Origin: an uncultured Campylobacterales bacterium
GTDB lineage: Bacteria > Campylobacterota > Campylobacteria > Campylobacterales > CAZAFM01
Assembly: GCA_964484395.1 (NCBI GenBank)
Contig: CAZAFM010000002.1
Location: 1-42,163 of the forward strand
DNA: 42,163 nucleotides
Reading direction: 5' to 3'
Position 1 is the first letter of the stretch, and every line of letters begins with the position of its first letter. This document shows positions 6,326-29,707 of this stretch, piece by piece. A model generated the notes under the pieces. That model ran no database searches, was not told the origin of the DNA, and saw only the letters and a list, made by a program, of their open reading frames with translations. Both the position numbers and the translations under genes were made by a program.

Positions 6326-7327
6326 TTGCCAGAAGTTTACGCTTCTCTTAAATCTATAGGTGCTTTTGTTCCTCCATATACTCTAAAAAATAGTGAGCTT
6401 GAAAAGATGGTTGACACCACTGATGAGTGGATTACTAAAAGAACAGGAATAAAAACTCGCCATATAGCAAAAAATCAAGATTGTAGTGATATGGCTGTAG
6501 AGGCTGCAAAAAAAGCAATAGATAGAGCAACAACAGACAAAAAAGAGATAGACCTCATTATATGTGCTACCATCTCTCCGGATTATCTCTGTATGCCTTC
6601 AACAGCATCTGTTATAGGTGATAAGCTTGGACTTAATGGAGTTCCCGCTTTTGATATAAGTGCTGCTTGTAGTGGGTTTATATATCTACTCTCCATTGCA
6701 AAAGCGTTCATAGAGTCAAAAACATACAAAAATATCCTAATAATAGGTGCTGAGAAGCTCAGTGCCATAGTTGACTACGAAGATAGAGCAACTTGTGTAC
6801 TTTTTGGTGATGGGGCTGGGGCTGCTATTATTGGAGTAACTGAGGATAAAAACAAGTCTATTTTAGATGTAAACATTGCAAGTGATGGCAAGTATTGGGA
6901 TTTTTTAGTTACGCCTGGATGCGGAAGTAAAAACCCTGCAAGCACAAAGGTGCTTGAAAAAAAAGAGAACTTTATGAAAATGAAGGGAAATGAGACATTT
7001 AAGCTTGCAGTTAAGACTCTCTCAAATGATGTTAATGAGATACTTGCAAAAAACTCTATATCTTCAAGTGAGGTAGATTACTTCATACCCCATCAAGCAA
7101 ACTTAAGAATAATAAAAGCTGTTGGTGATCTTCTTGATTTTGATGAGAAACAAATAGTTACGACAGTACAAAAGTACGGAAACACCTCATCAGCCTCAAT
7201 ACCTATGGCAATAGAAGATACTTATAATCAAGGAAAGCTCAAGGGAGGAGAACTCCTACTACTAGATGCTTTTGGTGGAGGGCTTACTTGGGGTAGCTCT
7301 CTTCTATACTTCAACCCTAACGGTTAA
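6326..7327 (+). CDS. fabH: 3-oxoacyl-ACP synthase III
   Basis: 333 aa with the active-site context [12 protein letters not shown] and the HQAN motif ([11 protein letters not shown]), plus [13 protein letters not shown] start is required because the conserved N-terminus precedes the first in-frame ATG. Confidence 0.95.
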
Positions 7328-8282
7328 AAAGCACCCCAATACCCACTCTATCTATAGCTCTATCATAGTCCACCAAACTCTCACCATAGCCACTAAAATA
7401 TCGTAAATAGAGATAGAATGTACTAAGAGGATAGGAGTAATCAAGAGTTAAGTTTCCCCTGTTTTGTTCAAAGTTTAGGTTGTTTTGGAGAGCTATTCCA
7501 AACTCATGTTTATAATAAGGGATAGTAACCTCAAATCTTCCACTTCCTAAATAATCTGTAATATTTGGATTATCATCACCCTTTGGGTCGCCTGGATAGG
7601 ACTTTTTCTTCTCAGGTATTCTATACCATCCTGTTAGCTTAAAGTCTATCTCTCTAAAGCCAAAGTTAACTTCTGCCAAAAGTCTATCCCAGCTTCTGCT
7701 ATTCTTCACATTTCCACCATTTGATTGATGGATATATCCTGCTTTGTATGATTTAAAATCTAACCCAAAAAACTCTCTGTCTATTGGAGATTCATAATAT
7801 ATCTCAGGTGCATAATTACTCTCTCTAAAGGGTCTTGAGTCATCACTATCATATACTTGCCAATATGAGTTCTGTGTATAGGCTAGGTATATATCTCCTT
7901 GGCTTCCAAGTACATCTGGTAAGATGTTTTTTTTGAAACTAATCTGAAACTGCGCTTCACTCTGTAGCCTATTTGGTATGTTTTGTGTAGAGTAGGTTAC
8001 TGGAAGTATGTAGTTTTTCTTATAAGTTTCTAACCAAAAAAGCCTTGTAAGTAGGTCATCATGGTTATCTTCAGCACTTTTTGTGATATGGAGTAGCTCT
8101 TTTTTCTGTTTTTCTAGTAGGAGCTCTATATCTTTTTGGTTTTTTACATTTAGTGTCTGGCTTCTTAGGTCTATGACACTGTCTTTTAAGCTAACATTAT
8201 CATCTACTATAAGTGTTATAGTCACCTCTTTAGCGTAGAGACTTATGGTGAGTATGGATAAGAGTAGAAGAGGGAGTCTCAT
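7317..8282 (-). CDS. pldA: outer-membrane phospholipase A (OMPLA)
   Basis: 321 aa with a signal peptide ([17 protein letters not shown]), the OMPLA catalytic region YIHQSNGG...SRSWDR and a YWQVYD motif. Confidence 0.9.
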
Positions 8283-9163
8283 CGGTTAAGCAGGTCTTTT
8301 AGACTCTTTTGTGGATTTTTACCTTCTATGATTTCAAAGACCTCATTAGCTATAGGGGTATAGAGTGAGTGTTTTTTAGCTAGCTCTACAACTGCCTTAG
8401 TGGTATAAACCCCTTCAGCCACCTCCCCTAGGCTTTTTAGTATGTCATCTAAAGATGTGCTTTTAGCTAGCATAAGCCCAACTCTAAAGTTTCTTGATAG
8501 GTCTGAGTTAGCCGTCAAAAAGAGGTCTCCTGAGCCACTAAGTCCTAAAAAAGTCTCAGCCCTTCCACCAAAAAACTCTCCAAACCTAGCTATCTCAACT
8601 AGCCCCCTAGAAGTAAGTGCAGCTCTTGCATTTAGCCCAAGCCTAAGCCCCTCACATATTCCAGATGCAATTGCTATGATGTTTTTGTAAGCACCTGCTA
8701 TCTCACCACCAGTTATATCATCACTAAAGTAGGGTTTGATAAAAGGTGGGAATGATTTTGCAAAATCTTCTGACTTCTGTCTGTTTTTGGAAAAAATAGT
8801 TAGAGCTGTTGGTAGTCCTCTTTCAACCTCTTTTGCAAAAGAGGGTCCACTTAAAAAAGCAAGCCTCTCTTCATCAATTACTCTTCTTGCTATTACATCT
8901 AAAAACTCAAGAGTAGTAGAGTCTATTCCTTTGGAGGCTATGACAAAAAACACATCTCTATTTTTGCAGTTTTCTAACCACTCTCTTAACACTTGTGCAG
9001 ATATAGCAACTATGACTACCTCTGCATTAAAAGCCTCTTTAAGCTCTACTTGATTAAACCCATCTAGCTCTCTTCTACTTGTGATGGTTGTTTGGTTTGT
9101 GATAGAAAAAGCCTTGTATAAAGCTCTCCCCCAAGCCCCACCTCCAATAATAGCTATCTTCAC
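8279..9163 (-). CDS. gpsA: NAD(P)H-dependent glycerol-3-phosphate dehydrogenase
   Basis: 294 aa with an N-terminal Rossmann motif ([11 protein letters not shown]) and GpsA-like core motifs (SKGI, NRNFRVG-like SRNFRVG). Confidence 0.95.
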
Positions 9164-10581
9164 TCTGCTAGCTTATCTTTTAGTAAGGCATTTACTGCTT
9201 GCGGATTTGCACCTTTTAGGTTTTTCATGACTTGTCCTACAAAAAATCCTATAAGCTTATCTTTTCCTGCTCTATACTGCTCTACTTGAGCTGGGTTTGC
9301 AGCTACTACTTCATCTATTATTTTAAGAATTGCAGAGTCATCATTTACCTGCTTTAGTCCTAGTTTCTCTATTGCTTCATCTACCTCTATATCCTCACTA
9401 AAGAGGTGATCTAGTATCTCTTTTGCACCTTTTCCGCTGATGGTTTTATCATCTATTCTTGCAACTATGGTTGAAAGTTTTTTAGGGGTGATAGGACACT
9501 CAGTAAGGCTCATTCCATTTTTAAGCCTACCAAAAAGCTCCACACATAGCCAGTTAGCTGCATTTTGAGGTTTGATTTTCTCTTCTAGCATCTCTTCAAA
9601 AAAGAGTGCGCTTTCTACTTCATTAGTAATCGTAATAGCATCATCCTCTTTTATGCCAAGTGCTACGAATCTCTCTCTTTTACTATCTGGAAGTTCTGGG
9701 ATGTTTTGGGCTTCTTCTAGTAGTTTAGTAGGTATCTCTACAGGAAGAAGGTCTGGGTCTGGGAAGTAGCGATAGTCACTACTCTCTTCTTTGCTTCTCA
9801 TAGACTTGGTAATCCCCCTATCCGTATCAAAAAGCCTAGTCTCTTGAACAACCTCTTGTTCATACACTCCTCTCTCCCAAGCCTCTATCTGTCTTTCTAC
9901 CTCGTAGTTTATGGCTTTTTGGATAAATCTAAAACTATTTAGGTTCTTAATCTCAACTCTAGTGTATAGCTTCTCATCACCTTTTGGACGGATAGATATA
10001 TTTGCATCACATCTAAAAGAGCCTTCTTGCATATTTGCATCTGAAATATCTAGATATCTAACTATCGCATGAAGTTTCTTTAGATATGCAGTTGCCTCTT
10101 CAGGGCTTCTTAAATCTGGCTCACTTACTATCTCTAAGAGTGGAGTTCCGGCTCTATTTAGGTCTACATGACTTACATCTTCATGGTGGATGTTTTTACC
10201 AGCATCTTCTTCTAGGTGCGCTCTTGTGATACCTACTCTTTTATGCTCTCCACTCCCTAGGTCAATGATTAAGTGACCATCACTAACTATAGGTATCTCA
10301 AACTGTGATATTTGATATGCCTTTGGAAGGTCTGGGTAGAAGTAGTTTTTTCTTGCAAAGATTGAGTTTTGATTGACTTTAGCATCAACTGCATATCCAA
10401 ATGAGGCTGCTTTTTTAACCACCTCTTTGTTTAGCACAGGCAGAGCACCAGGAAGTGCTAGGCAGGTTGGGCATACATTTTTGTTTGGCTCTTCTCCAAA
10501 GCTTGTTGCACATGAACAAAAAATCTTTGTTTTTGTATTTAACTGGGCGTGAACCTCTAGCCCTATAACTGTTTCAAACAT
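9160..10581 (-). CDS. gatB: Asp-tRNA(Asn)/Glu-tRNA(Gln) amidotransferase subunit B
   Basis: 473 aa with the GatB N-terminus [22 protein letters not shown] and a C-terminal GatB/YqeY-like tail. Confidence 0.97.
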
Positions 10582-18856: not shown

Positions 18857-19246
18857 ATGACTCATATAGAGACCGCACATCCGTATTTTGGGGTGTTTGT
18901 GTTTTTTGTACTCACTTTTGGTGCATTTTTCGCAACACTTCTTTTGACAAGATTTATCAGTGGAAAGCTAGCTAGAAAAGATACTGAGAAGTTAAAACTA
19001 GCTATGTATGAGTGTGGTCCTGAACCCACGAAACAACCAAACAAAGTTTCGGTTCAGTGGTATATGCTCGCACTTCTATTTATTATATTTGATGTGGAGA
19101 TTATATTTATGTTTCCTTGGGCTGTTGATTTTAAGATACTTGGTTGGTTTGGATTTGCAGCTATGTTTATATTTTTACTACTACTAACTATTGGTTTTGT
19201 ATATGAGTGGAAGAAAGGAGCACTAGAATGGCGCAGCATAAAATAA
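18857..19246 (+). CDS. nuoA: NADH-quinone oxidoreductase subunit A
   Basis: 129 aa with three TM segments and the YECGPEP motif typical of NuoA/ND3. AAGGAGAGG RBS upstream. Confidence 0.92.
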
Positions 19247-19737
19247 ACTACTTTAAAGACAGTGGGCTACCAGTTGTTTTAACAACAGTAGATCACCTCC
19301 TTAATTGGGGTAGAAGTAACTCTTTGTGGGCATTAACCTATGGGCTTGCTTGCTGTGCTATTGAGATGATGGCAAGTGGTGCTAGTAGATATGACTTTGA
19401 TAGGTTTGGTACTATCTTTAGAGCTAGTCCTAGACAATCAGACCTCTTAATTCTCTCAGGTACTCTTACAAAAAAGCACGCTGAGTTCTTAAGAAGACTC
19501 TATGATCAAATGCCAGATCCTAAGTGGGTTATCAGTATGGGAAGTTGTGCAAATACAGGTGGTATGTTTAATACCTATGCAACAGTTCAAGGTGTTGATA
19601 GGATAGTTCCTGTTGATATATATCTTCCTGGATGTGCTCCTAGACCTGAATCACTTCAGTATGCAGTTATGATGCTTCAAAGAAAGATAAGAAGTCAAAA
19701 AGCTTCAAAAAGAGCTCCAGAAAAGAGGTTTGTCTAA
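19228..19737 (+). CDS. nuoB: NADH-quinone oxidoreductase subunit B
   Basis: It carries the [15 protein letters not shown] and LPGCAPRPE motifs (N2 cluster ligands). I prefer the ATG at 19228, which gives MAQHKINYF and has an AAGGAG RBS 8 nt upstream, over the GTG at 19207 from the ORF track. Confidence 0.95.
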
Positions 19738-20540
19738 TGAGAGAGTTTAAGCCAAAAGATAATGTTCAAAAAAAGTCATACTACACTGATAGGTTTTGGG
19801 TTGCACCAAAGGTTCCTAGAGAGAAGCCAGAAGATAGTGAGGTTTTTAGAAGTAATCTTGAAGAGATAAAGTCAATTGTATCCATAAAAGATGCTTTTAT
19901 AGAGCTTGGAAATCTTGTGCTTATAGTTGAGCACCAAGAGCTTCACTCTTGCATAAAAGCTCTAAAAGAGAGACTAAAATATGATATTCTAACAGAAATG
20001 AGTGCAATTGACTATTTAGCTAAATGTGATGGTTTTGAGCTTTTTTATCAAATGCTAAATATACAAAAAGCAAAGAGAGTAAGAGTTAAGTGCTTTTTGC
20101 CAAAAAATCATGCAGGAGAGAGTGTAAGTGATCTTTTTAGATCTGCTGATTGGGCTGAGCGAGAGTGTTATGATATGTTTGGAATAAGATTCAACAATCA
20201 TCCACATCTAAAGCGAATCCTTATGCCTGATGATTGGGAAGGTCATCCACTACTTAAAAGCTACCCACTTCATGGAGATGATTTTGCTCAGTGGTATGAG
20301 GTGGATAAGATATTTGGAAAAGAGCATAGAGAGCTTATTGGACCAGAAAATAGAGATGGCGCATTAATAGATAGATATGATACGCATAGATTTGCTAGGA
20401 TTGGTCATGAAGTTCCTTTTGGAGAGGATATTAGTGAGGGTGAGCCTGATACTGAGATAAGGTATTATGAGGATAAGAGACCTCCATTACTACCTGATTA
20501 CAAGCCTGAAAACTCAAAACAGCTAAAAGTTAGAAAGTAG
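19737..20540 (+). CDS. nuoC: NADH-quinone oxidoreductase subunit C
   Basis: 267 aa with the [15 protein letters not shown] motif. The start overlaps the nuoB stop (TAATG). Confidence 0.93.
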
Positions 20541-20548
20541 GGGAGAAT

Positions 20549-21781
20549 ATGCAACAACCAAATAGACTTGAACCCTTTTATGAAAATATAAATTTTGATA
20601 GAGTTGATAACACTATGGTTGTCAACTTCGGTCCTCAACACCCTTCAGCCCATGGTCAGCTAAGACTAATGCTAGAGCTTGAGGGTGAGCAGGTTATAAA
20701 AGCTTATCCAGATATTGGTTATCTTCACAGAGGTATGGAGAAGATGGCTGAAAATATGATTTATAATGAGTTCCTACCTACTACTGATAGGATGGATTAT
20801 ATTGCAGCTAGCTCTAACAACTACGCCTTTGCTTTAGGAGTTGAGAGGTTACTTGGAATAGAAAATGATATACCAAGACGAGCTAAGATAATAAGAACCA
20901 TGCTTTTGGAGCTAAATAGAATAGCATCTCACCTTTTTTGGCTTGCTACTCATGCACTTGATGTTGGGGCTATGAGTGTTTTTCTTTTTTGCTTTAGAGA
21001 GAGGGAGTTTGTGCTTGATCTTATGGAGGACTATTGTGGAGCTAGGCTTACACACTCTGCAGTAAGAATCGGTGGAGTTCCACTAGATCTTCCTGAAGGG
21101 TGGACTAACCAGCTTAGAGACTACTTGGATAAGTTTCCTGAAGCTATTGCTGATTATGAAGGGTTATTAGATCAAAACCGTATCTGGAGAATGAGACTTG
21201 ATGGAGTTGGTATTTTAACTCCTGATGACGCTAAGAACTGGGCGTGTTCGGGTATTATGCTAAGAGGAAGTGGTATTAAGTGGGATATTAGAAAAGAGGA
21301 GCCTTATGAGCTATATGATGAACTTGATTTTGAGGTTCCAGTAACTGATACTTGTGATAGTTATGGTAGATATAAGCTCTACTTAGAAGAGATGAGGCAA
21401 TCTACAGATATTCTCTATCAGCTTTTAGATATGTATAGTGAAAGTGAGCCTGGACTTATGGCACATGCTCCAAAATATATATCAGCTACTAAAGAGGATA
21501 TGATGACTCAAAACTACTCTTTAATGCAACACTTTGTACTTGTTACTCAAGGTATGAGACCACCTATTGGAGAGGTTTATGCACCTACTGAGTCTCCTAA
21601 GGGAGAGCTTGGGTTTTTTATAAGAAGTGAGGGAGAGCCATATCCATATAGGCTAAAAGTTAGAGCACCTAGCTTTTATCACACTGGACTTTTAAACGAC
21701 CTTCTACCAGGACACTATTTGGCTGATGTTGTAACAATTATCGGTACTACAAATATTGTCTTTGGTGAAGTAGATAGATAG
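20549..21781 (+). CDS. nuoD: NADH-quinone oxidoreductase subunit D
   Basis: 410 aa with [17 protein letters not shown] and the C-terminal GEVDR motif. Confidence 0.97.
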
Positions 21782-21790
21782 GAGTTGATG

Positions 21791-22021
21791 ATGAAAAGGT
21801 TTGATCTTAGACATCTTAAGAGTGATTTTGAAGAGAGAATGAAAGAGCTTTTAAGTCGTGACCTAAAGGACGGTGAAGTTGGTATTTTTATGTTTGAAAT
21901 TGGTGATTTTACGCCTGTGCAAAAAAGTGCTGATACTATCAAAGAGCTAGGTCATGAGCTTCTAAACTCTTTAAAATTCAACGAAGTTGACTGGACTATA
22001 GTTGTAAGGAAGTGCGCTTGA
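21791..22021 (+). CDS. small Cys-poor protein occupying the NuoE position (epsilonproteobacterial NuoE replacement, Cj1575c/HP1264-like by position)
   Basis: The ORF track starts at TTG 21785, followed by tandem ATGs at 21788 and 21791. I chose 21791 for its spacing to the AGGAG at 21780..21784. The product has 76-78 aa and a single Cys (penultimate residue), so it cannot ligate a NuoE-type [2Fe-2S] cluster. It sits between nuoD and the NuoF-position gene. Confidence 0.6.
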   Translation: MKRFDLRHLKSDFEERMKELLSRDLKDGEVGIFMFEIGDFTPVQKSADTIKELGHELLNSLKFNEVDWTIVVRKCA

Positions 22022-24015
22022 GTGCATTTTTGTTTACTGCTTGGAAAGATCAAGTAATAGATAATAGAGGCAAGCCAAAGGAGTCTTGGGAGGAGTGTTC
22101 TTTCAAGCTACCAGCTGACTTTTACGGAGGTACTAAATCTAAAGCCTTTGTAGGTTGGGATGGATTTGCCATTTTTGATGATAGTGTAGATGTTATCAAG
22201 CTCCTAAAAGAGTATGCTCTGCAGTATCAAAACTACTCAGAAGCCTGTGGAAGATGTGCTCCTGGAAGATGGGGTGGACAGGTTTTGCATGATGTGCTTG
22301 ATAAAGTAGCTAGAGGAGAGGGTCAAAGAAGTGATCTTGATCAGCTCAAAAGCTCTTGTAATATGATGAAAGAGACTAGTAAATGCGAGATAGGTAGGAC
22401 TGTTCCTATCTCTATACTTAAAGCTTTGGAGTATTTTAATGATGAATTTGAAAAAGCAATCTCCTCTAAAGCTCCAAGTAGTGGATATGAGAAGGATAGT
22501 AGCTTTTTTAAAGCAAAAGTAACAGCACCTTGTATTGATGCTTGCCCTGCTCATGTTGATATACCAGCATATATTGAGGGTGTGAGGGATTTAAGATATG
22601 ATGACTCTTTGAGGGCAACTAGAAAAACAATGCCTTTAGCTCATACTTGTGGAAGAGTGTGTCCGCATCCTTGTGAGAGTGAGTGTAGACGAGAAAACCT
22701 AGATAGTGCTATTTCTATTATGGAGTTAAAAAGAATTGGGGCTGATTATGAGGATGAGTTTGATAAAAAGTGGCTCCATCCACAAGAACAAAAACCAAGT
22801 AATGGAAAAAAAGTAGCAGTTATAGGTTCAGGTCCTGCTGGTCTAACGGGAGCATATTACTTAGCGCTTGAAGGTGTAGAGTGTGATGTATATGAAGAGC
22901 TTCCAGTTCTAGGTGGTGAAGTAGCAGTTGGAGTTCCAGAATATCGAATGCCTATAGGAAAGTACAATGAAGATATAGAGCTTGTAAAATCAGTTGGTGT
23001 GAACTTTATCACAAATACAAAAGTAGATGCTGAGATGATGAGAGAGCTTGAGAGGAAGTATGATGCAATACTCATAGCCACTGGCACAAGACTGTCTAAA
23101 AAAGTTAGAGCAGAGGGTGAAGACCCAAGCTTGGAGGGCTACTGGCCTGCTATTCCTTTTTTAGATCAGATAAATCTACATGACAAATACGGAATAGGTG
23201 AAGCAGTTGATTTAACCGGAAAAACTATAGTGTGTGTAGGTGGTGGTTTTACATCCATGGATGTTGTTAGATGCTCTATTAGAGCAGGAGCTAAAAGAGT
23301 AGTTATGCTCTATAGAAGAGATGAGAAAACCATCATCAAAAACACCTCTTATGAAGAGTATCATGAAGCTGTAGAAGAGGGTGTTGAGTTTGTTTTTCAG
23401 AGTGCTATAAAAAAGATAAATAGCTCAAATGGAAAGATTGATAGTGTAACTTGTGCAATGTATGAGATGGTCTATCCAGAGGATGGAGGAAGACCTCAGC
23501 TTGTTGAGCTAGAAGGGCATGACTACACTATGGAAGTAGACTTCGTGATACCTGCAGTCTCCCAAGATGCTGATCTCTCTCATATCCCGCAAGAATGGGA
23601 GATAGAGCTAACTAGCTGGAATACAATCAAAACTGATGGAAGAACTTACGCTACAAACAGAGCTGGAATATTTGCAGCAGGTGATTGCGAGTATGGTCCT
23701 ATGACTATTGTAAATGCTGTAGGTCAGGCTAAGAGGGCTGCCTCAGTTATGGCTAGATATCTTCAAAGTGGAGAGCTCACTCTTAGTGATGAAGAGATTA
23801 TGGAAGACAACCTAAGAAAACTCAGAGTTTATGACAAAAATGAAGTAGTTAGAGGATGGCTAAAAGGGCTTTCTAGAGAAGAGAGTGAGAAGCTTGCAGT
23901 AGAGATTAGAAAAGATAATAACCAAGAGGTAAACTTTGGTCTAACAAAAGAGCAAGCCATAGATGAAGCAAATAGATGCATGAGATGCTACTATATTGCG
24001 ATGGTTGAGGTGTAG
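22018..24015 (+). CDS. fusion protein at the NuoF position: NuoF C-terminal-tail-like domain plus GltD/NfnB-like [4Fe-4S]/FAD/NAD(P)H oxidoreductase
   Basis: The ORF track starts at GTG 22012. TTG 22018 has better spacing to the AAGGAAG RBS (22006..22012). The N-terminal region GFAIFDDSVDVIKLLKEYALQYQNYSEACGRCAPGRWGG aligns to the NuoF segment ending in ESCG.C.PCR.G, with the third Cys replaced by Gly. This is followed by CIDACPAHVDIP...CGRVCPHPCESECRR (GltD N-terminal Fe-S domain), VAVIGSGPAGLTGAYYLA (FAD GxGxxG), VCVGGGFTSMDV (second Rossmann fold) and GIFAAGDC. No NuoF FMN/NADH glycine-rich motif is visible. Confidence 0.75.
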   Translation: MSAFLFTAWKDQVIDNRGKPKESWEECSFKLPADFYGGTKSKAFVGWDGFAIFDDSVDVIKLLKEYALQYQNYSEACGRCAPGRWGGQVLHDVLDKVARGEGQRSDLDQLKSSCNMMKETSKCEIGRTVPISILKALEYFNDEFEKAISSKAPSSGYEKDSSFFKAKVTAPCIDACPAHVDIPAYIEGVRDLRYDDSLRATRKTMPLAHTCGRVCPHPCESECRRENLDSAISIMELKRIGADYEDEFDKKWLHPQEQKPSNGKKVAVIGSGPAGLTGAYYLALEGVECDVYEELPVLGGEVAVGVPEYRMPIGKYNEDIELVKSVGVNFITNTKVDAEMMRELERKYDAILIATGTRLSKKVRAEGEDPSLEGYWPAIPFLDQINLHDKYGIGEAVDLTGKTIVCVGGGFTSMDVVRCSIRAGAKRVVMLYRRDEKTIIKNTSYEEYHEAVEEGVEFVFQSAIKKINSSNGKIDSVTCAMYEMVYPEDGGRPQLVELEGHDYTMEVDFVIPAVSQDADLSHIPQEWEIELTSWNTIKTDGRTYATNRAGIFAAGDCEYGPMTIVNAVGQAKRAASVMARYLQSGELTLSDEEIMEDNLRKLRVYDKNEVVRGWLKGLSREESEKLAVEIRKDNNQEVNFGLTKEQAIDEANRCMRCYYIAMVEV

Positions 24016-24016
24016 T

Positions 24017-26269
24017 ATGGAGAAGTTTTCTTTTGTAATAAACAATGAACCTATAGTAGCAACAAAAGGGCAGACTATCCTAGAAGCGGCAAGAGAAGCT
24101 GGAATCTATATACCTACACTATGCTACTTACCAAAGCTAGAGCCTATCTCATCATGTCGATTATGTGTGGTTGAAGTTGAAGGACAAGATGGGTTTGTAC
24201 TTAGCTGTCAAACTCCAGCAATTGAAGGAATAGAGGTTAGGGTAGATAGTGAAGCACTAAAAGAGTATAGGACTCAGATAATGAAGTTTTACTGCATAAA
24301 CCACCCACTTGAATGCGGAGTGTGTGATCAAAGTGGTGAGTGCGGTTTGCAAAATATGACTTTAGAGCTTGGAGTAGATAATCAAGAGTTTATGGCAAAA
24401 GAGAAGAAGAGAGATTTGAGTGATTGGGGGCTTTTGCAGTATGATGAGAGTCTATGTATCTTGTGTGAACGATGTGTTCATACTTGTAATGAGATAATAG
24501 GTGATGATGCTATCAAAATCTCTTATGGTGGCTACTCTTCAAAGATAGTTCCTTATAATGGCGAGAGCTTGGAGTGTAGTGATTGTGGTGAGTGTGCTGA
24601 GGTCTGTCCTGTAGGAGCGATTATTGTCAAAGACTTTCAGTATAGCTCAAATGCGTGGGAGTTAGATAAGATAGATTCAACTTGTGCTCATTGCTCAAAT
24701 GGATGCTATATAGAGTATGAAGTAAAGCAAGAGGGTACACTTAATAAAGATAGTTATAAAATCTACAGAACTGCATCTGATGCAGATTTCTCATATCTCT
24801 GCGGTGCAGGTAGATTTGGCTATGACTTTGAGAATAGAGCCTCTAAAGATAGTTCAGCTTTTAGTAACGCTCTAGAAGCCTTCAAAAAAGCAGATACTAT
24901 AGCCTTTGATAGCTATATCACTAATGAAGAAGCTTTGATTTTACAAAAACTAAAAGAGAAGCTAGGAGTTAAGCTAGTAAACAAAGATGCACTAGCCTAT
25001 CAAAACTTCTTAAAAGAGTTTAGCTTAAAATCTAAAAAAAGCCTATATGATGGGGATTTAGAAGATATAAAAAGATCAGGTCTAGTAGTTCAAGTAGGTT
25101 CAAGAAGTAGGGATAATCACCCTGGAATTAGATACGCTATAAATGAAGCTATAAAAAAGCAAGGAGCCCTCTTTGTTGATTGTCACCCAGTAGAAGATAC
25201 TGAGATAGAGAAGTCACTGCATATCAAATATGAAGCAGGTTGCGAAGAAGCCCTCATAGCACTTATTGCAAAAGCAGTAGTTTCAAAAGATAGTAGCACT
25301 CAGAGCTTTTTTGACGCACTTGATGTTGGATATTTGCAGGCTGAAGCCAATATATCTGAAAAAGAGATAGAAAGAGTAGAAAAAGAGTATAAAAAAAGAA
25401 CTCACAAAACCCTAATAATAGGCTCTGACCTCTACACTCACAAAAGATCAAAAAACATAGCCAAACTAGTAGGTCTTATAGAAGCAAATAGTGACTTTAA
25501 AGTAATACTAATACCAACCTCTACTAACACTCTTGGAGTATCATTAATATGTGATTTAGACAAAGAAGAGGGAAGCTATACTGTAGGTTATAATGTAGAA
25601 GGAGACTTCAAACTCTCCTCTTTAGGAGATGGTGAGCTTGATATGCCAGCTCTAAATCAACAAGAGGGAACATTTACTAATATAGACAAAAGAGTAGTAA
25701 AACTAAACCCCGCCCTACCATATAGTGGATATGAGCTAAATGATATAGCAAAAGCTCTAGGTTTAACTAACAAACACACTATAGATTATACAAAAGAGCT
25801 TCCAGAAGCTAAGGGGTATAAATCTATAGAGTTTGACCAACTTCCTAACTCATTTTTAAATAATGGAAAAGAGGATAGAGGATATCTACTACAAAACATA
25901 GATTGCCCAAGTGAAGAAAACTCCTCAATAGAGCCAATAGAAGAGCTAGAAGAGTATAATGGAACAATTATATATCTATCAAACCCAATACTGCAGTTTA
26001 ATAGATATACGGCAAAGGCTAGTACACTTAAAGGCGGTGGTGATATACTAAGAGCCTCAAAACAGTTTATGGTAGCTGCAAAACTTCAGAGTGAAGGAGT
26101 TGTAAGACTTGAAGGTGAAGGTGTAAAAAGAGAGATAAGGTTAGAGGTTGATGACTCTTTAAAAGGAACTATCGCTCTTTTTCCACATTTTGATGATCCA
26201 AGTTTAGATGGAGAGTATAAGTACAAAAGAGTAGAAATTACAAATTTATCGGTGGGTAGAGATGAGTAA
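24017..26269 (+). CDS. nuoG: NADH-quinone oxidoreductase subunit G paralog 1
   Basis: I prefer the ATG at 24017 (MEKFSFVINNEP), 1 nt after the upstream stop, over the TTG at 23996. It has a [2Fe-2S] motif (CYLPKLEPISSCRLCVVEV...C), the His-ligated cluster motif NHPLECGVCDQSGEC, CILCERCVHTC, CSDCGECAEVCPVGA and CAHCSNGC...C (N7-like). A molybdopterin-oxidoreductase-like C-terminal half follows. Confidence 0.85.
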   Translation: MEKFSFVINNEPIVATKGQTILEAAREAGIYIPTLCYLPKLEPISSCRLCVVEVEGQDGFVLSCQTPAIEGIEVRVDSEALKEYRTQIMKFYCINHPLECGVCDQSGECGLQNMTLELGVDNQEFMAKEKKRDLSDWGLLQYDESLCILCERCVHTCNEIIGDDAIKISYGGYSSKIVPYNGESLECSDCGECAEVCPVGAIIVKDFQYSSNAWELDKIDSTCAHCSNGCYIEYEVKQEGTLNKDSYKIYRTASDADFSYLCGAGRFGYDFENRASKDSSAFSNALEAFKKADTIAFDSYITNEEALILQKLKEKLGVKLVNKDALAYQNFLKEFSLKSKKSLYDGDLEDIKRSGLVVQVGSRSRDNHPGIRYAINEAIKKQGALFVDCHPVEDTEIEKSLHIKYEAGCEEALIALIAKAVVSKDSSTQSFFDALDVGYLQAEANISEKEIERVEKEYKKRTHKTLIIGSDLYTHKRSKNIAKLVGLIEANSDFKVILIPTSTNTLGVSLICDLDKEEGSYTVGYNVEGDFKLSSLGDGELDMPALNQQEGTFTNIDKRVVKLNPALPYSGYELNDIAKALGLTNKHTIDYTKELPEAKGYKSIEFDQLPNSFLNNGKEDRGYLLQNIDCPSEENSSIEPIEELEEYNGTIIYLSNPILQFNRYTAKASTLKGGGDILRASKQFMVAAKLQSEGVVRLEGEGVKREIRLEVDDSLKGTIALFPHFDDPSLDGEYKYKRVEITNLSVGRDE
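24800..25048 (+). repeat. 249-bp block, 100% identical to 27108..27356
   Basis: I compared the two copies base by base. The block is in frame in both nuoG paralogs and encodes CGAGRFGYDFENRASKDSS...SLKSKKSLY. The flanking sequence is diverged on both sides. Confidence 0.95.
25404..26023 (+). repeat. 620-bp block identical to 27862..28481 except for one synonymous mismatch
   Basis: I compared the two copies base by base at an offset of 2458 nt. The only difference I found is 26005 A versus 28463 G (AGA versus AGG, both Arg). The block is in frame in both paralogs (KTLIIGSDLYTHKRSK...NRYTAKAS). Confidence 0.93.
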
Positions 26270-28718
26270 AGTTACAATTCATATTGATGGAAGACCAATA
26301 GAGTGCAATGAGGGTGAGTATGTCCTTGATGTTGCAAGAGGTGAGGGGATATTTATTCCAGCTATATGCTATCTAAATAGATGTTCTCCAAGTCTAGCTT
26401 GCAGGATATGTATGGTAGAGAGTGATGGTAAGAGTGTGTATGCATGTAATGCAAAAGCAAAAGATGGCATGAATATTACAGTATCTACTCCTGAGATTGA
26501 GGAGGAGAGACGAAATATTATGGAAGTGTATGACATTAACCATCCTCTTCAGTGTGGAGTATGTGATCAAAGTGGTGAGTGTGAGCTTCAAAACTACACT
26601 CTAGAGATGGGAGTAGAAACCCAAAACTTTAGCATTCAAGACACTGCTAGACCAACAAAGGAGTGGAGTGATTTTATTACTTATGACTCATCGTTGTGTA
26701 TAGTATGTGAGAGATGTACTACAGTCTGTAAAGATATGGTAGGTGACATGGCTCTAAAAACCATACCTAGGGGTGGTGAGCAACTAGATAAAGGACTAAA
26801 AGAGACTCTTAGTAAAGATCTCTTTGCTATGTGGAATAAGATGCAAAAGTCCATAATAGGTCCTGTAAGTGGTGAGCGTTTGGAGTGTAGTGATTGTGGT
26901 GAGTGCATATCTGTATGTCCTGTGGGAGCTATTAGTAGTAGTGGTTTTAGCTACAGCTCAAACGCGTGGGAGCTAGAGAAAACACCTAGTGCTTGTGCGC
27001 ACTGCTCTATAGCATGCTTGCTAAACTATGAGACAAAACACACTTCAGTAAGTAATAGTAGACCTAAAATCTATAGGGTAACTAATGATTTTGCCTTTCA
27101 ATCTCTTTGCGGTGCAGGTAGATTTGGCTATGACTTTGAGAATAGAGCCTCTAAAGATAGTTCAGCTTTTAGTAACGCTCTAGAAGCCTTCAAAAAAGCA
27201 GATACTATAGCCTTTGATAGCTATATCACTAATGAAGAAGCTTTGATTTTACAAAAACTAAAAGAGAAGCTAGGAGTTAAGCTAGTAAACAAAGATGCAC
27301 TAGCCTATCAAAACTTCTTAAAAGAGTTTAGCTTAAAATCTAAAAAAAGCCTATATAGTGCCTCTTTAGAAGATGTTTATAATGCAGATTTCACAGTAGT
27401 AGTTGGTTCAAACCTTAAAAGTGATGCGCCAATACTTAAATATGCACTAAATAACTCTTTGAAAATCAACAAGGCTGCTAGTGCTTATTTTCACACCTTA
27501 AAAGACGCACAAATAGAATCAACCTCTAAAAATCTCTCCTCTTTTACCTATCTGCCAAACCAAGAGGAGAAGCTACTCTATCTTCTTGCAGATTCATTCA
27601 TAGAGGAAGATAGAAAGCCAACTGAGCTAAAAGAGCAAACAGATAAGTTTAAATCTAAAAAAATAAAGCAGACAGAAGAGAAGATAAAAGAGAAGATAAA
27701 AGAGGTAGTAGAGGTAGATGGTGAGAGTAAAGAGGTAGAAAAAGTAGTCGAAAAAACTATCACAAAAGAGGTAGAGTACATTCACAACTCCCTACTTGAT
27801 ACCCTAAATATTTCTCATACTGACTTTGCTACCTTACTATCTACATTGAGTAAAAAAGAGAACAAAACCCTAATAATAGGCTCTGACCTCTACACTCACA
27901 AAAGATCAAAAAACATAGCCAAACTAGTAGGTCTTATAGAAGCAAATAGTGACTTTAAAGTAATACTAATACCAACCTCTACTAACACTCTTGGAGTATC
28001 ATTAATATGTGATTTAGACAAAGAAGAGGGAAGCTATACTGTAGGTTATAATGTAGAAGGAGACTTCAAACTCTCCTCTTTAGGAGATGGTGAGCTTGAT
28101 ATGCCAGCTCTAAATCAACAAGAGGGAACATTTACTAATATAGACAAAAGAGTAGTAAAACTAAACCCCGCCCTACCATATAGTGGATATGAGCTAAATG
28201 ATATAGCAAAAGCTCTAGGTTTAACTAACAAACACACTATAGATTATACAAAAGAGCTTCCAGAAGCTAAGGGGTATAAATCTATAGAGTTTGACCAACT
28301 TCCTAACTCATTTTTAAATAATGGAAAAGAGGATAGAGGATATCTACTACAAAACATAGATTGCCCAAGTGAAGAAAACTCCTCAATAGAGCCAATAGAA
28401 GAGCTAGAAGAGTATAATGGAACAATTATATATCTATCAAACCCAATACTGCAGTTTAATAGGTATACGGCAAAGGCTAGTGAGCTTAGTAGTGAACTAT
28501 ATCTATCTATCTCAAAGACTCTTGCAGAGGAGCTTGGTGTAGAGAGTAAAGATGTGCTAACCCTAAGTAGTGAGGGCGGCAGTATAAGTTTAGAGTGTGT
28601 AGTAGATAGCTCTCTTGTTAATAGTGCGGTTTTAGTTCCAGATTTTATTCAATCTAAAGATATTGATACTCTTTTTAAACAGAGTAGATATATCAAAGCA
28701 GACATAAGGAAGGTGTGA
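26262..28718 (+). CDS. nuoG: NADH-quinone oxidoreductase subunit G paralog 2
   Basis: 818 aa with the same full set of Fe-S motifs as paralog 1 (CYLNRCSPSLACRICMVE, NHPLQCGVCDQSGEC, CIVCERCTTVC, CSDCGECISVCPVGA, CAHCSIAC). The N-terminal 290 aa are only moderately similar to paralog 1. It contains a K/E-rich insertion and overlaps paralog 1 by 8 nt. Confidence 0.85.
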   Translation: MSKVTIHIDGRPIECNEGEYVLDVARGEGIFIPAICYLNRCSPSLACRICMVESDGKSVYACNAKAKDGMNITVSTPEIEEERRNIMEVYDINHPLQCGVCDQSGECELQNYTLEMGVETQNFSIQDTARPTKEWSDFITYDSSLCIVCERCTTVCKDMVGDMALKTIPRGGEQLDKGLKETLSKDLFAMWNKMQKSIIGPVSGERLECSDCGECISVCPVGAISSSGFSYSSNAWELEKTPSACAHCSIACLLNYETKHTSVSNSRPKIYRVTNDFAFQSLCGAGRFGYDFENRASKDSSAFSNALEAFKKADTIAFDSYITNEEALILQKLKEKLGVKLVNKDALAYQNFLKEFSLKSKKSLYSASLEDVYNADFTVVVGSNLKSDAPILKYALNNSLKINKAASAYFHTLKDAQIESTSKNLSSFTYLPNQEEKLLYLLADSFIEEDRKPTELKEQTDKFKSKKIKQTEEKIKEKIKEVVEVDGESKEVEKVVEKTITKEVEYIHNSLLDTLNISHTDFATLLSTLSKKENKTLIIGSDLYTHKRSKNIAKLVGLIEANSDFKVILIPTSTNTLGVSLICDLDKEEGSYTVGYNVEGDFKLSSLGDGELDMPALNQQEGTFTNIDKRVVKLNPALPYSGYELNDIAKALGLTNKHTIDYTKELPEAKGYKSIEFDQLPNSFLNNGKEDRGYLLQNIDCPSEENSSIEPIEELEEYNGTIIYLSNPILQFNRYTAKASELSSELYLSISKTLAEELGVESKDVLTLSSEGGSISLECVVDSSLVNSAVLVPDFIQSKDIDTLFKQSRYIKADIRKV
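27108..27356 (+). repeat. second copy of the 249-bp identical block (partner 24800..25048)
   Basis: See the partner feature. The offset between copies is 2308 nt. Confidence 0.95.
27862..28481 (+). repeat. second copy of the 620-bp block (partner 25404..26023)
   Basis: See the partner feature. The offset between copies is 2458 nt, with one mismatch. Confidence 0.93.
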
Positions 28719-29707
28719 TGGAAGGTTACATAATTGGTACAATAATCAAAGTCTTAATAATCCTACTTGTCTTTTCAGCAGTTGCTGGATTTTTGACATA
28801 TATGGAGAGGAAAGTATTGGCATTTATGCAAAGAAGGTTAGGACCTACTGTTGTTGGACCCTTTGGTGTGCTTCAGATACTAGCTGATGGTATAAAGCTA
28901 GCTACAAAAGAGGATATAGTTCCTCAGAATGCTTTAAAACCTGTCTTCTTGTTTGCTCCAATTATTACAGCAGCTACAGCATTTATTGCGATGGCACCTA
29001 TTCCATTCTTCCCTGAGTTTGAGATGTTTGGAATTACGGTTAGACCTATTGTTGCTGATATTAATGTGGCTTTACTTTTTGTTTTTGGTGTAGCTGCAGT
29101 TGGTATTTATGGGATTTTACTAGGTGGTTTGGCATCTAATAACAAATGGTCACTTCTTGGAGCTGCTAGGGCTACTATTCAGCTTCTTAGCTTTGAGATT
29201 ATCTCAGGATTATCAATTTTGGCTCCAATTATGATTATAGGCTCACTCTCATTGATTGACATCAATAATCATCAAGATGGTGGGATTTTCTCTTGGCTTA
29301 TATGGCAACAGCCTGTTGCATTTATCCTATTCCTAATAGCTGGGTATGCTGAGACAAATAGGACTCCATTTGACCTTCTTGAGCATGAAGCTGAGATTAT
29401 TGCAGGGTATGGAACTGAGTACTCTGGGATGAGATGGGGTATGTTTTTTATAGGGGAGTATGCAAACCTTATAACATTAGCATTTTTAGCCAGCCTCATA
29501 TTTTTGGGTGGGTTTAACCCTCTTTGGTTTATTCCTGGAGGTATAGCAATACTTCTTAAGGTTTTCTTTTTCTTGTTTTTGTTTATGTGGGTAAGGGCTG
29601 CATGGCCACACATAAGACCAGATCAGCTTATGTGGTTGTGCTGGAAGGTGCTAATGCCAATAGCTTTGGTGAATATACTAATAACTGGCCTAGTGCTGAT
29701 GATATAA
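28718..29707 (+). CDS. nuoH: NADH-quinone oxidoreductase subunit H
   Basis: It has the [14 protein letters not shown] motif, is polytopic, and has an EYS/GM.W..FF..EY region. The ORF begins GTG-ATG (28715/28718). I chose the ATG, which overlaps the nuoG2 TGA. Confidence 0.95.

Follow-up and report, generated by a model that had tools for sequence, protein, structure and literature searches.

The window analysed here, a stretch of 42,163 nucleotides (nt) from an uncultured Campylobacterales bacterium (contig CAZAFM010000002.1 of GenBank assembly GCA_964484395.1), includes a single nuo operon for complex I on the + strand, in the order nuoABCD, a gene for a NuoX-like protein, a gene for a flavoprotein in which the tail of NuoF is joined to a GltD-like part, nuoG1, nuoG2 and nuoH–N. 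The original prediction, made from the letters of the DNA, had drawn attention to two adjacent NuoG genes of 750 and 818 amino acids (aa) that overlap by 8 nt, and these are borne out by the open reading frames at 24017–26269 and 26262–28718. The products, here named NuoG1 and NuoG2 (G1 and G2 in residue numbers), share two tracts, A and B, that are identical to the letter, and the features are listed below in window positions.

24017–26269, + strand, NuoG1, the short paralogue, 750 aa (from NCBIfam, iron–sulfur ligands, tree and AlphaFold model)
26262–28718, + strand, NuoG2, the long paralogue, 818 aa (from NCBIfam, iron–sulfur ligands and tree)
24800–25048, + strand, tract A, G1 copy, 249 nt exact, G1 aa ~262–344, which begins at the last ligand of N7 and takes in the first Rossmann-like unit
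27108–27356, + strand, tract A, G2 copy, exact match to 24800–25048
25404–26004, + strand, tract B, G1 copy, 601 nt exact, protein identical over G1 aa 464–669
27862–28462, + strand, tract B, G2 copy, exact match to 25404–26004, G2 aa 535–740

The NCBIfam model for NADH-quinone oxidoreductase subunit G (NF006305; cut-off 591 bits) matched NuoG1 at 883.5 bits and NuoG2 at 1131.9 bits. Both had been predicted to retain a full set of iron–sulfur (Fe-S) ligands, and each does have 20, enough for one [2Fe-2S] and four [4Fe-4S] clusters. These are the ligands of N1b (C36, 47, 50 and 64 in G1; C36, 47, 50 and 62 in G2), those of N5 (H96, C100, 103 and 109 in G1; H94, C98, 101 and 107 in G2), an N7-type site (C223, 226, 230 and 262 in G1; C245, 248, 252 and 283 in G2) and an 8-Cys two-cluster ferredoxin domain (C147, 150, 153 and 157 with C187, 190, 193 and 197 in G1; C146, 149, 152 and 156 with C209, 212, 215 and 219 in G2). 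The earlier list of clusters was correct for the sites that it named and incomplete, as each copy has one further [4Fe-4S] site in the 8-Cys domain. The N1b, N5 and N4 ligand sets are complete in both copies and invariant across 38 homologues. Over the N-terminal ~260–290 aa the copies are 45–50 % identical, as had been estimated by eye. Relative to NuoG1, NuoG2 carries an insert of ~22 aa in the ferredoxin-like domain and a lysine/glutamate (K/E)-rich insert of ~70 aa in the C-terminal half, which appear as gaps at G1 172/173 and G1 436/437 in the BLASTP alignment and agree with the published description. An AlphaFold (AF2) model of NuoG1 (predicted local distance difference test score, pLDDT, 89.5; predicted template modelling score, pTM, 0.92) has a complete NuoG/FdsA-like fold, with template modelling (TM) scores of 0.75–0.80 to Escherichia coli NuoG and Thermus thermophilus Nqo3. 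In this model segment A corresponds to the Rossmann-like unit that comes first after the N7 site, segment B makes up most of the next alpha/beta domain, and the C-terminal segment is a beta-barrel domain; model confidence is highest, at 96–99, in segments A and B.

The overall protein identity of 57 % between NuoG1 and NuoG2 is very uneven. The copies had been described as diverged, and this holds for the head, for a segment between the tracts (here called mid) and for the C-terminal barrel, the latter two being ~24–28 % identical, but not for the two inner tracts, which give identical protein stretches of 83 and 206 aa. The Fe-S head, the mid segment and the C-terminal beta-barrel are copy-specific in every genome.

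The source genome is a metagenome-assembled genome of 140 contigs from a microbial mat, and short reads cope poorly with exact repeats of 249 and 601 nt; both points speak for an assembly artefact in which one nuoG, or two that had clearly diverged, became a pair or acquired identical tracts through internal repeats. The assembly was checked in the Logan unitigs of the source run. Tracts A and B are each a single collapsed unitig, at depths of 15.9 and 15.5, whereas the flanks and all unique pieces, including both mid segments and the piece that holds the junction of the G1 tail with the G2 head, are at a single depth of 6.3–8.6. The approximately twofold depth of the tracts, taken with the single depth of the unique pieces, indicates two true copies of each tract. 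The same unitig structure was found in three further runs of another study (four runs and two studies overall), no stray NuoG fragments were found elsewhere in the assembly, and the order of the mid segments agrees with that of their orthologues. Finished, single-contig genomes of relatives have the same tandem pair, with exact tracts of 618–619 nt at the same place. Hence, the possibility raised in the original prediction, that resequencing might collapse the two genes into one, fails on both unitig depth and finished genomes, and we consider an artefact very improbable.

Also on the side of an artefact are sequences that join the G1 head to the G2 tail via tract B, namely a contig from run X4 and the proteins P0009 and P0004, which are the closest relative proteins. 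In the X4 contig, window position 25403 is joined to 27862, giving a hybrid of G1 head and mid, tract B and G2 tail. P0009, a hybrid of the same make, comes from a 2.6-kb contig, and P0004, 81 % identical to G1, is a Trinity isoform ('i2') from a eukaryote transcriptome set and implies a transcribed relative carrying the same repeat. The hybrids may be either paths that the assembler took through the 601-nt repeat or real variants with a deletion of 2458 nt; direct 601-nt repeats lying 2458 nt apart are prone to deletion. Separately, run X2 contains a two-variant bubble in tract B (window 25516 A>T and 25519 C>T, equivalent to 27974 and 27977) at depths of 4.8 and 4.5. In runs X3 and X4 the same variant is linked to the G2 copy, and it reflects either polymorphism among strains or copies that differ by two bases in other populations.

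In order to place the pair among its relatives, 40 genomes of the same order were sampled and 20 loci were fetched. Other genomes do carry the pair: the trio of flavoprotein, NuoG1 and NuoG2 is present in 25 of the 40 genomes and in 16 of the 20 fetched loci, and the named carriers include Nitratiruptor, Nitrosophilus, Hydrogenimonas, Sulfurimonas and Sulfuricurvum. The flavoprotein gene lies directly upstream of a full G1 gene in all 25 flavoprotein carriers, and a full G1 is found in none of the 15 relatives without the flavoprotein. The tandem of a short then a long NuoG gene directly before nuoH, as seen here, recurs in the 16 fetched loci, and the position of the flavoprotein and G1 genes in mid-operon, between nuoD and nuoH, is constant over at least 17 families. 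The source genome, from a hypersaline microbial mat, is the only member of its family among the species sampled. Though it had been implied that the two-NuoG layout was new, a preprint (bioRxiv 10.1101/717884) already reports it from Sulfurimonas denitrificans and relatives.

A tree of the N-terminal Fe-S domain was used to establish which copy is the orthologue. The 17 G1 sequences form one clade with 100 % support and the single NuoG of four flavoprotein-less operons nests among the G2 sequences, so that NuoG2 is the orthologue of the single NuoG in Campylobacter-type operons and of the standard Campylobacterota NuoG. NuoG1 is the extra copy, co-inherited with the NADPH-type flavoprotein. 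The duplication is old and common to most families of the order. NuoG2, though kept in all operons, is the copy with the lineage-specific inserts. Two G2 sequences (L029_G2 from G018 and L030_G2 from G023) are without the N7 cysteines, like all four of the single-copy NuoGs with which they cluster.

Identical tracts are not confined to the genome studied here. In the window the longest stretch over which G1 and G2 match exactly is 601 nt. The corresponding figures are 619 and 618 nt for a pair of finished congeneric genomes, and 580 and 188 nt for a third and a fourth family, respectively, whereas the twelve remaining relatives compared have 17–37 nt. The borders of block B coincide, lying at G1 aa 460–672 here and at 470–681, 467–679, 467–665, 471–597 and 476–670 in others. 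Nucleotide identity in block B is 97–99.8 % within a genome and 60–80 % between genomes. Two congeners are 20 % apart in block B while each is 99.4–99.5 % identical internally, which places conversion after their split. In the nearest relative without exact repeats (L053), the tracts are ~90 % identical, with mostly synonymous differences (17 : 3 and 16 : 2), and look like an older conversion event that is decaying. Draft genomes of a fifth family have contigs that break inside block B, with contig ends of 141–142 nt at 96.5–100 % identity. When block B was searched in a sample of 150 genomes, one family gave two copies of near-equal score throughout, including in several finished genomes; equal bit scores are a proxy for identity that is informative only for high-scoring families, as unrelated near-ties also arise (for example in G028).

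The history of the two segments also differs from that of the rest of the gene. Between genomes, segments A and B are 47–53 % identical for G1–G1 comparisons, which is not above the 47–56 % for G1–G2, whereas pairs from the same genome share 53–60 %; in the other segments, orthologues between genomes are far closer than paralogues. In an approximately unbiased (AU) test on the A+B columns, monophyly of G1 was rejected (p 1.6e-44, delta log-likelihood 714), and with the non-A/B columns the G1 clade was recovered with 100 % support. The orthology signal in segments A and B is gone even in genomes without recent tracts, and it gives no donor direction for the conversion. The pair thus shows identical tracts bounded by diverged sequence, incongruence between segments, and an identity within genomes that exceeds that between orthologues, a combination typical of concerted evolution. 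We interpret this pattern as recurrent intrachromosomal gene conversion, apparently confined to segments A and B, in at least five families and including finished genomes. No relevant report on gene conversion in nuoG was found in the literature search.

Drafts of two families other than that of the source genome are broken inside block B (L045 and L046 from G010, L047, L048 and L052 from G031, and L037 from G029), with contig ends of 141–172 nt that are 96.5–100 % identical between copies, and in the 150-genome sample several genomes of those two families give one block-B match or none. A contig break at tract A in G040 was considered as a G1/G2 repeat and rejected, being an overlap of the same G1 region.

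The single-NuoG operons, one of which is from Campylobacter, have a gene of 75–80 aa and a gene of 247–290 aa between nuoD and nuoG. The 247–290 aa protein matched no Pfam family. Against hidden Markov models of the two copies, four such proteins scored 177, 163, 89 and 61 bits with the G1 model and 50 and 39 bits with the G2 model, two being without a match to the latter. A profile built from 41 such proteins, mostly from Campylobacter, aligns to G1 aa ~355–508 and ~630–746 (hhalign probability 100 %, E 8.5e-47), with ~120 residues of block B cleanly deleted relative to G1. A structural model of the protein (pLDDT 93.7) matched mainly chains of the molybdopterin-oxidoreductase family, including Nqo3, the other matches being weak ones to small beta-barrels. 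The loci listed with a truncated NuoG1 are as follows.

L032, 6650–7522, + strand, truncated NuoG1, precedes nuoG
L033, 6065–6910, + strand, truncated NuoG1, precedes nuoG
L034, 6395–7162, + strand, truncated NuoG1, precedes nuoG
L035, 6382–7125, + strand, truncated NuoG1, precedes nuoG
L042, 4920–6338, − strand, truncated NuoG1, listed with the above

One genome (G012) has an intermediate, a G1 of 472 aa without the Fe-S head, and the flavoprotein is absent from that genome. From these comparisons the 247–290 aa protein before nuoG appears to be a stripped NuoG1, and the simplest reading would be stepwise reduction from a two-NuoG ancestor. The surviving parts of G1 are essentially the copy-specific ones, which fits a division of roles in which those parts anchor G1 to the complex and the Fe-S head serves the flavoprotein. 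The literature search returned nothing relevant that linked Cj1574c, or NuoX/NuoY, with NuoG.

The remaining genes of the operon in the window, all on the + strand, were identified as follows.

18857–19246, + strand, nuoA (Pfam Oxidored_q4)
19207–19737, + strand, nuoB (Pfam Oxidored_q6)
19737–20540, + strand, nuoC (Pfam Complex1_30kDa)
20549–21781, + strand, nuoD (Pfam Complex1_49kDa)
21785–22021, + strand, NuoX-like small protein, 78 aa (Pfam PF16514, NADH-UOR_E, E 6e-39)
22012–24015, + strand, flavoprotein, 667 aa (Pfam PF10589, PF14691 and PF07992; NCBIfam NAD(P)-binding and GltD families)
28715–29707, + strand, nuoH (Pfam NADHdh; start at 28715 or 28718), with nuoI–N downstream

NuoG1 starts with an ATG that is 1 base past the TAG stop of the flavoprotein gene and has GAGG 7 nt upstream, NuoG2 starts with an ATG in the 8-nt overlap with the end of NuoG1, and the ATG of nuoH overlaps the TGA stop of NuoG2 (TGATG). 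In this arrangement nuoG1 and nuoG2 are translationally coupled. In Pfam and NCBIfam profile searches the operon has neither NuoE nor a NuoF that binds flavin mononucleotide (FMN), and is non-canonical in having the PF16514 protein and the flavoprotein between nuoD and nuoG. The flavoprotein, which stands in for NuoF in the operon, consists in order of the NuoF C-terminal (N3-type) domain, a GltD/NfnB-like domain for 2×[4Fe-4S] and a domain for flavin adenine dinucleotide (FAD) and NAD(P)H. It has no PF01512 domain and no FMN/NADH-binding domain, and NuoF models matched it over their last ~115 positions only. A contig search found no second nuo operon in the genome, and the sole other NuoF-like gene, which is also the only FMN-type NuoF homologue of the genome, lies on another contig (G000 contig C18, ~7188–10205, − strand), where a NuoF-like gene (537-aa frame), a HoxU-like gene of 250 aa and a gene like that of a [NiFe]-hydrogenase large subunit stand together. 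This cluster is probably a Hox-type NAD(P)-linked hydrogenase.

The make-up of the flavoprotein bears on whether it might, together with NuoG1, form a separate soluble NADPH:ferredoxin-type oxidoreductase, partly like NfnABC/Bfu and detached from complex I. Soluble Nfn-Bfu enzymes do join NuoG-like Fe-S domains to GltD-like modules, and the matches in the Protein Data Bank (PDB) include NfnA (9n5u), the Fe-S head also matching the soluble bifurcating hydrogenase HydA (7t2r/7t30). However, the flavoprotein has the C-terminal domain of NuoF only, with no FMN/NADH domain and no NuoE beside it, and this is not a Bfu core. Furthermore, the mid-operon position between nuoD and nuoH is fixed over at least 17 families, and the G1 remnant stays in the complex I operon after loss of the flavoprotein. 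A detached enzyme is hence quite unlikely.

Taken together, we consider it rather probable that the NuoG pair is a functional mosaic in which ongoing conversion maintains the identity of segments A and B, in parallel in at least five families, and that the protein in the position of Cj1574c (NuoY-type), found in Campylobacter and three other single-NuoG operons, is a stripped remnant of NuoG1. What this explanation proposes about identity and evolution we put forward with considerable confidence from the comparison of sequences. For the wiring model, in which G1 would link the flavoprotein to the G2 chain, the odds seem to us about even. NuoG2 would occupy the canonical NuoG position on NuoI/NuoCD, and NuoG1 would be an extra, stably bound subunit whose Fe-S head connects the chain with the NADP(H)/FAD flavoprotein. 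Electrons might then pass between FAD, 2×[4Fe-4S], the G1 clusters, the G2 clusters, N6a/b, N2 and quinone, and the chain is probably reversed by the proton-motive force, so as to supply the reductive tricarboxylic acid (rTCA) cycle with NAD(P)H and perhaps also with reduced ferredoxin, as suggested in bioRxiv 10.1101/717884. The copy-specific segments may hold subunit-specific contacts. Segments A and B may form an interchangeable structural core, and conversion would then be tolerated there and elsewhere be purged or mechanically blocked.

The original prediction had offered two options. The first was that one copy is the true complex I subunit and the other extends the electron wire towards the GltD-like module; its first half agrees with the orthology of NuoG2, and for the wire role of NuoG1 the support comes from comparison, in that the loss of the Fe-S half of G1 where the flavoprotein is gone is what such a role would lead one to expect. 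The second was that the copies are alternative input modules, G1 and G2 taking the same site in two complex I populations, one fed by the flavoprotein and the other by flavodoxin or ferredoxin. Both copies are full NuoG folds with complete ligand sets and, A and B being identical, their core surfaces would be the same, which speaks for this option. It nevertheless fits less well, as the genes are translationally coupled in one operon, G1 and G2 are strictly co-inherited, and the mid segment and C-terminal barrel are ~24–28 % identical, so that the same docking surfaces are unlikely. In addition, a G1 remnant without Fe-S ligands is kept beside NuoG in single-NuoG operons, which fits an additional subunit and not a substitute. 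Alternative modules therefore seem unlikely.

Several observations weigh against the combination of a converted mosaic with G1 as a wire to the flavoprotein. At one locus (L029, from G018) the flavoprotein is present, yet G1 no longer has N7 or the complete set of 8-Cys ligands: its N7 site reads CTPT and its 8-Cys domain reads CCCS-WCC. G1 is closer than G2 to the outgroup NuoG 7q5y_A (187 against 150 bits), and the canonical position of G2 is accordingly drawn from orthology within the order only. The coincident borders of the tracts could be purely mechanical and unrelated to function, the flanks being too diverged for heteroduplex. The order of the two mid segments does not follow from the unitig graph by itself; as assembled, it rests on the orthology of each, each mid segment matching its orthologues in genomes without repeats. 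Finally, a solved structure of this enzyme type was not found in the PDB, where the best sequence matches cover the first ~280 aa only.

If the reading of the pair as a converted mosaic with a reduced descendant is true, the flavodoxin-dependent complex I reported for Campylobacter jejuni arose step by step, through losses, from an ancestor that had two NuoG copies and was linked to NADPH, and the NuoY-type protein that Campylobacter-type complex I has in the position of Cj1574c is given an evolutionary origin. The two-NuoG complex I is regarded as the route by which Campylobacterota of vents and sediments move electrons uphill to NAD(P)H and ferredoxin for CO2 fixation. The segment map yields testable predictions on contacts and separates the interchangeable parts, the copy-specific parts and the parts that survive in the Campylobacter type. 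The exact repeats also have a practical consequence, as they break draft assemblies and yield chimeric NuoG gene models in databases. This pair is a further instance of a known layout, in a family with no other member sampled; neither the conversion mosaic nor the descent of the Campylobacter-type protein from G1 was found in the literature searched.

The pair is the already described double-NuoG complex I of sulfur- and hydrogen-oxidising chemolithoautotrophic Campylobacterota. In S. denitrificans, Suden_1824 encodes an NfnB-like 'NuoF', Suden_1823 a short NuoG and Suden_1822 a long NuoG; both NuoG copies are expressed and the short copy has the same two 'missing regions' (bioRxiv 10.1101/717884). 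The hypotheses published there are that one NuoG shuttles electrons to the replacement of NuoF or is the site of bifurcation, and a passage of that preprint credits Weerakoon & Olson 2008 with first noting the two-NuoG layout. The operon in the window resembles that of S. denitrificans in gene order, in having a short (~750 aa) then a long (~820 aa) NuoG, in the two inserts of the long copy (in the ferredoxin-like domain and, ~70 aa, in the C-terminal half), in an extra 4-Cys cluster plus N7 in NuoG, and in a GltD/NfnB-like flavoprotein for NuoF. It differs in that the copies are reported to be 36 % identical overall in S. denitrificans and are 57 % identical here, owing to two identical tracts of 83 and 206 aa.

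In the complex I of Campylobacter and Helicobacter, nuoX and nuoY take the place of nuoE and nuoF and flavodoxin is the donor (Weerakoon & Olson 2008, as summarised in PMC6682613). The operon studied here shares with that type the backbone and the small PF16514 protein, and the NuoG of that type is orthologous to NuoG2. It differs from that type, in which there is no flavoprotein, a protein of 247–290 aa is in the place of NuoG1 and the N7 cysteines of NuoG are lost.

Both NuoG1 and NuoG2 resemble canonical NuoG/Nqo3 in the ligand patterns of N1b, N5, N4 and N7, and the whole-chain fold is like that of canonical NuoG/Nqo3 (E. coli 7z7r and T. thermophilus 4hea) and of the formate dehydrogenase alpha subunit FdsA (TM 0.75–0.80). 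Canonical complex I differs in having one NuoG, docked to NuoE/NuoF, whereas here there are two, each with an extra [4Fe-4S] site. The system does not belong to the Bfu/NfnABC type, as the operon has no FMN/NAD(H)-binding NuoF-like domain and no NuoE-like [2Fe-2S] subunit.

In bacteria, concerted evolution of tandem paralogues through gene conversion is exemplified by tufA/tufB and the rRNA operons. Like such paralogues, the A and B segments are near-identical within a genome and diverged between species, with trees that are incongruent along the gene. Unlike tufA/tufB-type cases, conversion is limited here to two internal segments in subunits of a single enzyme, its borders are shared by several families, and three other segments never convert.

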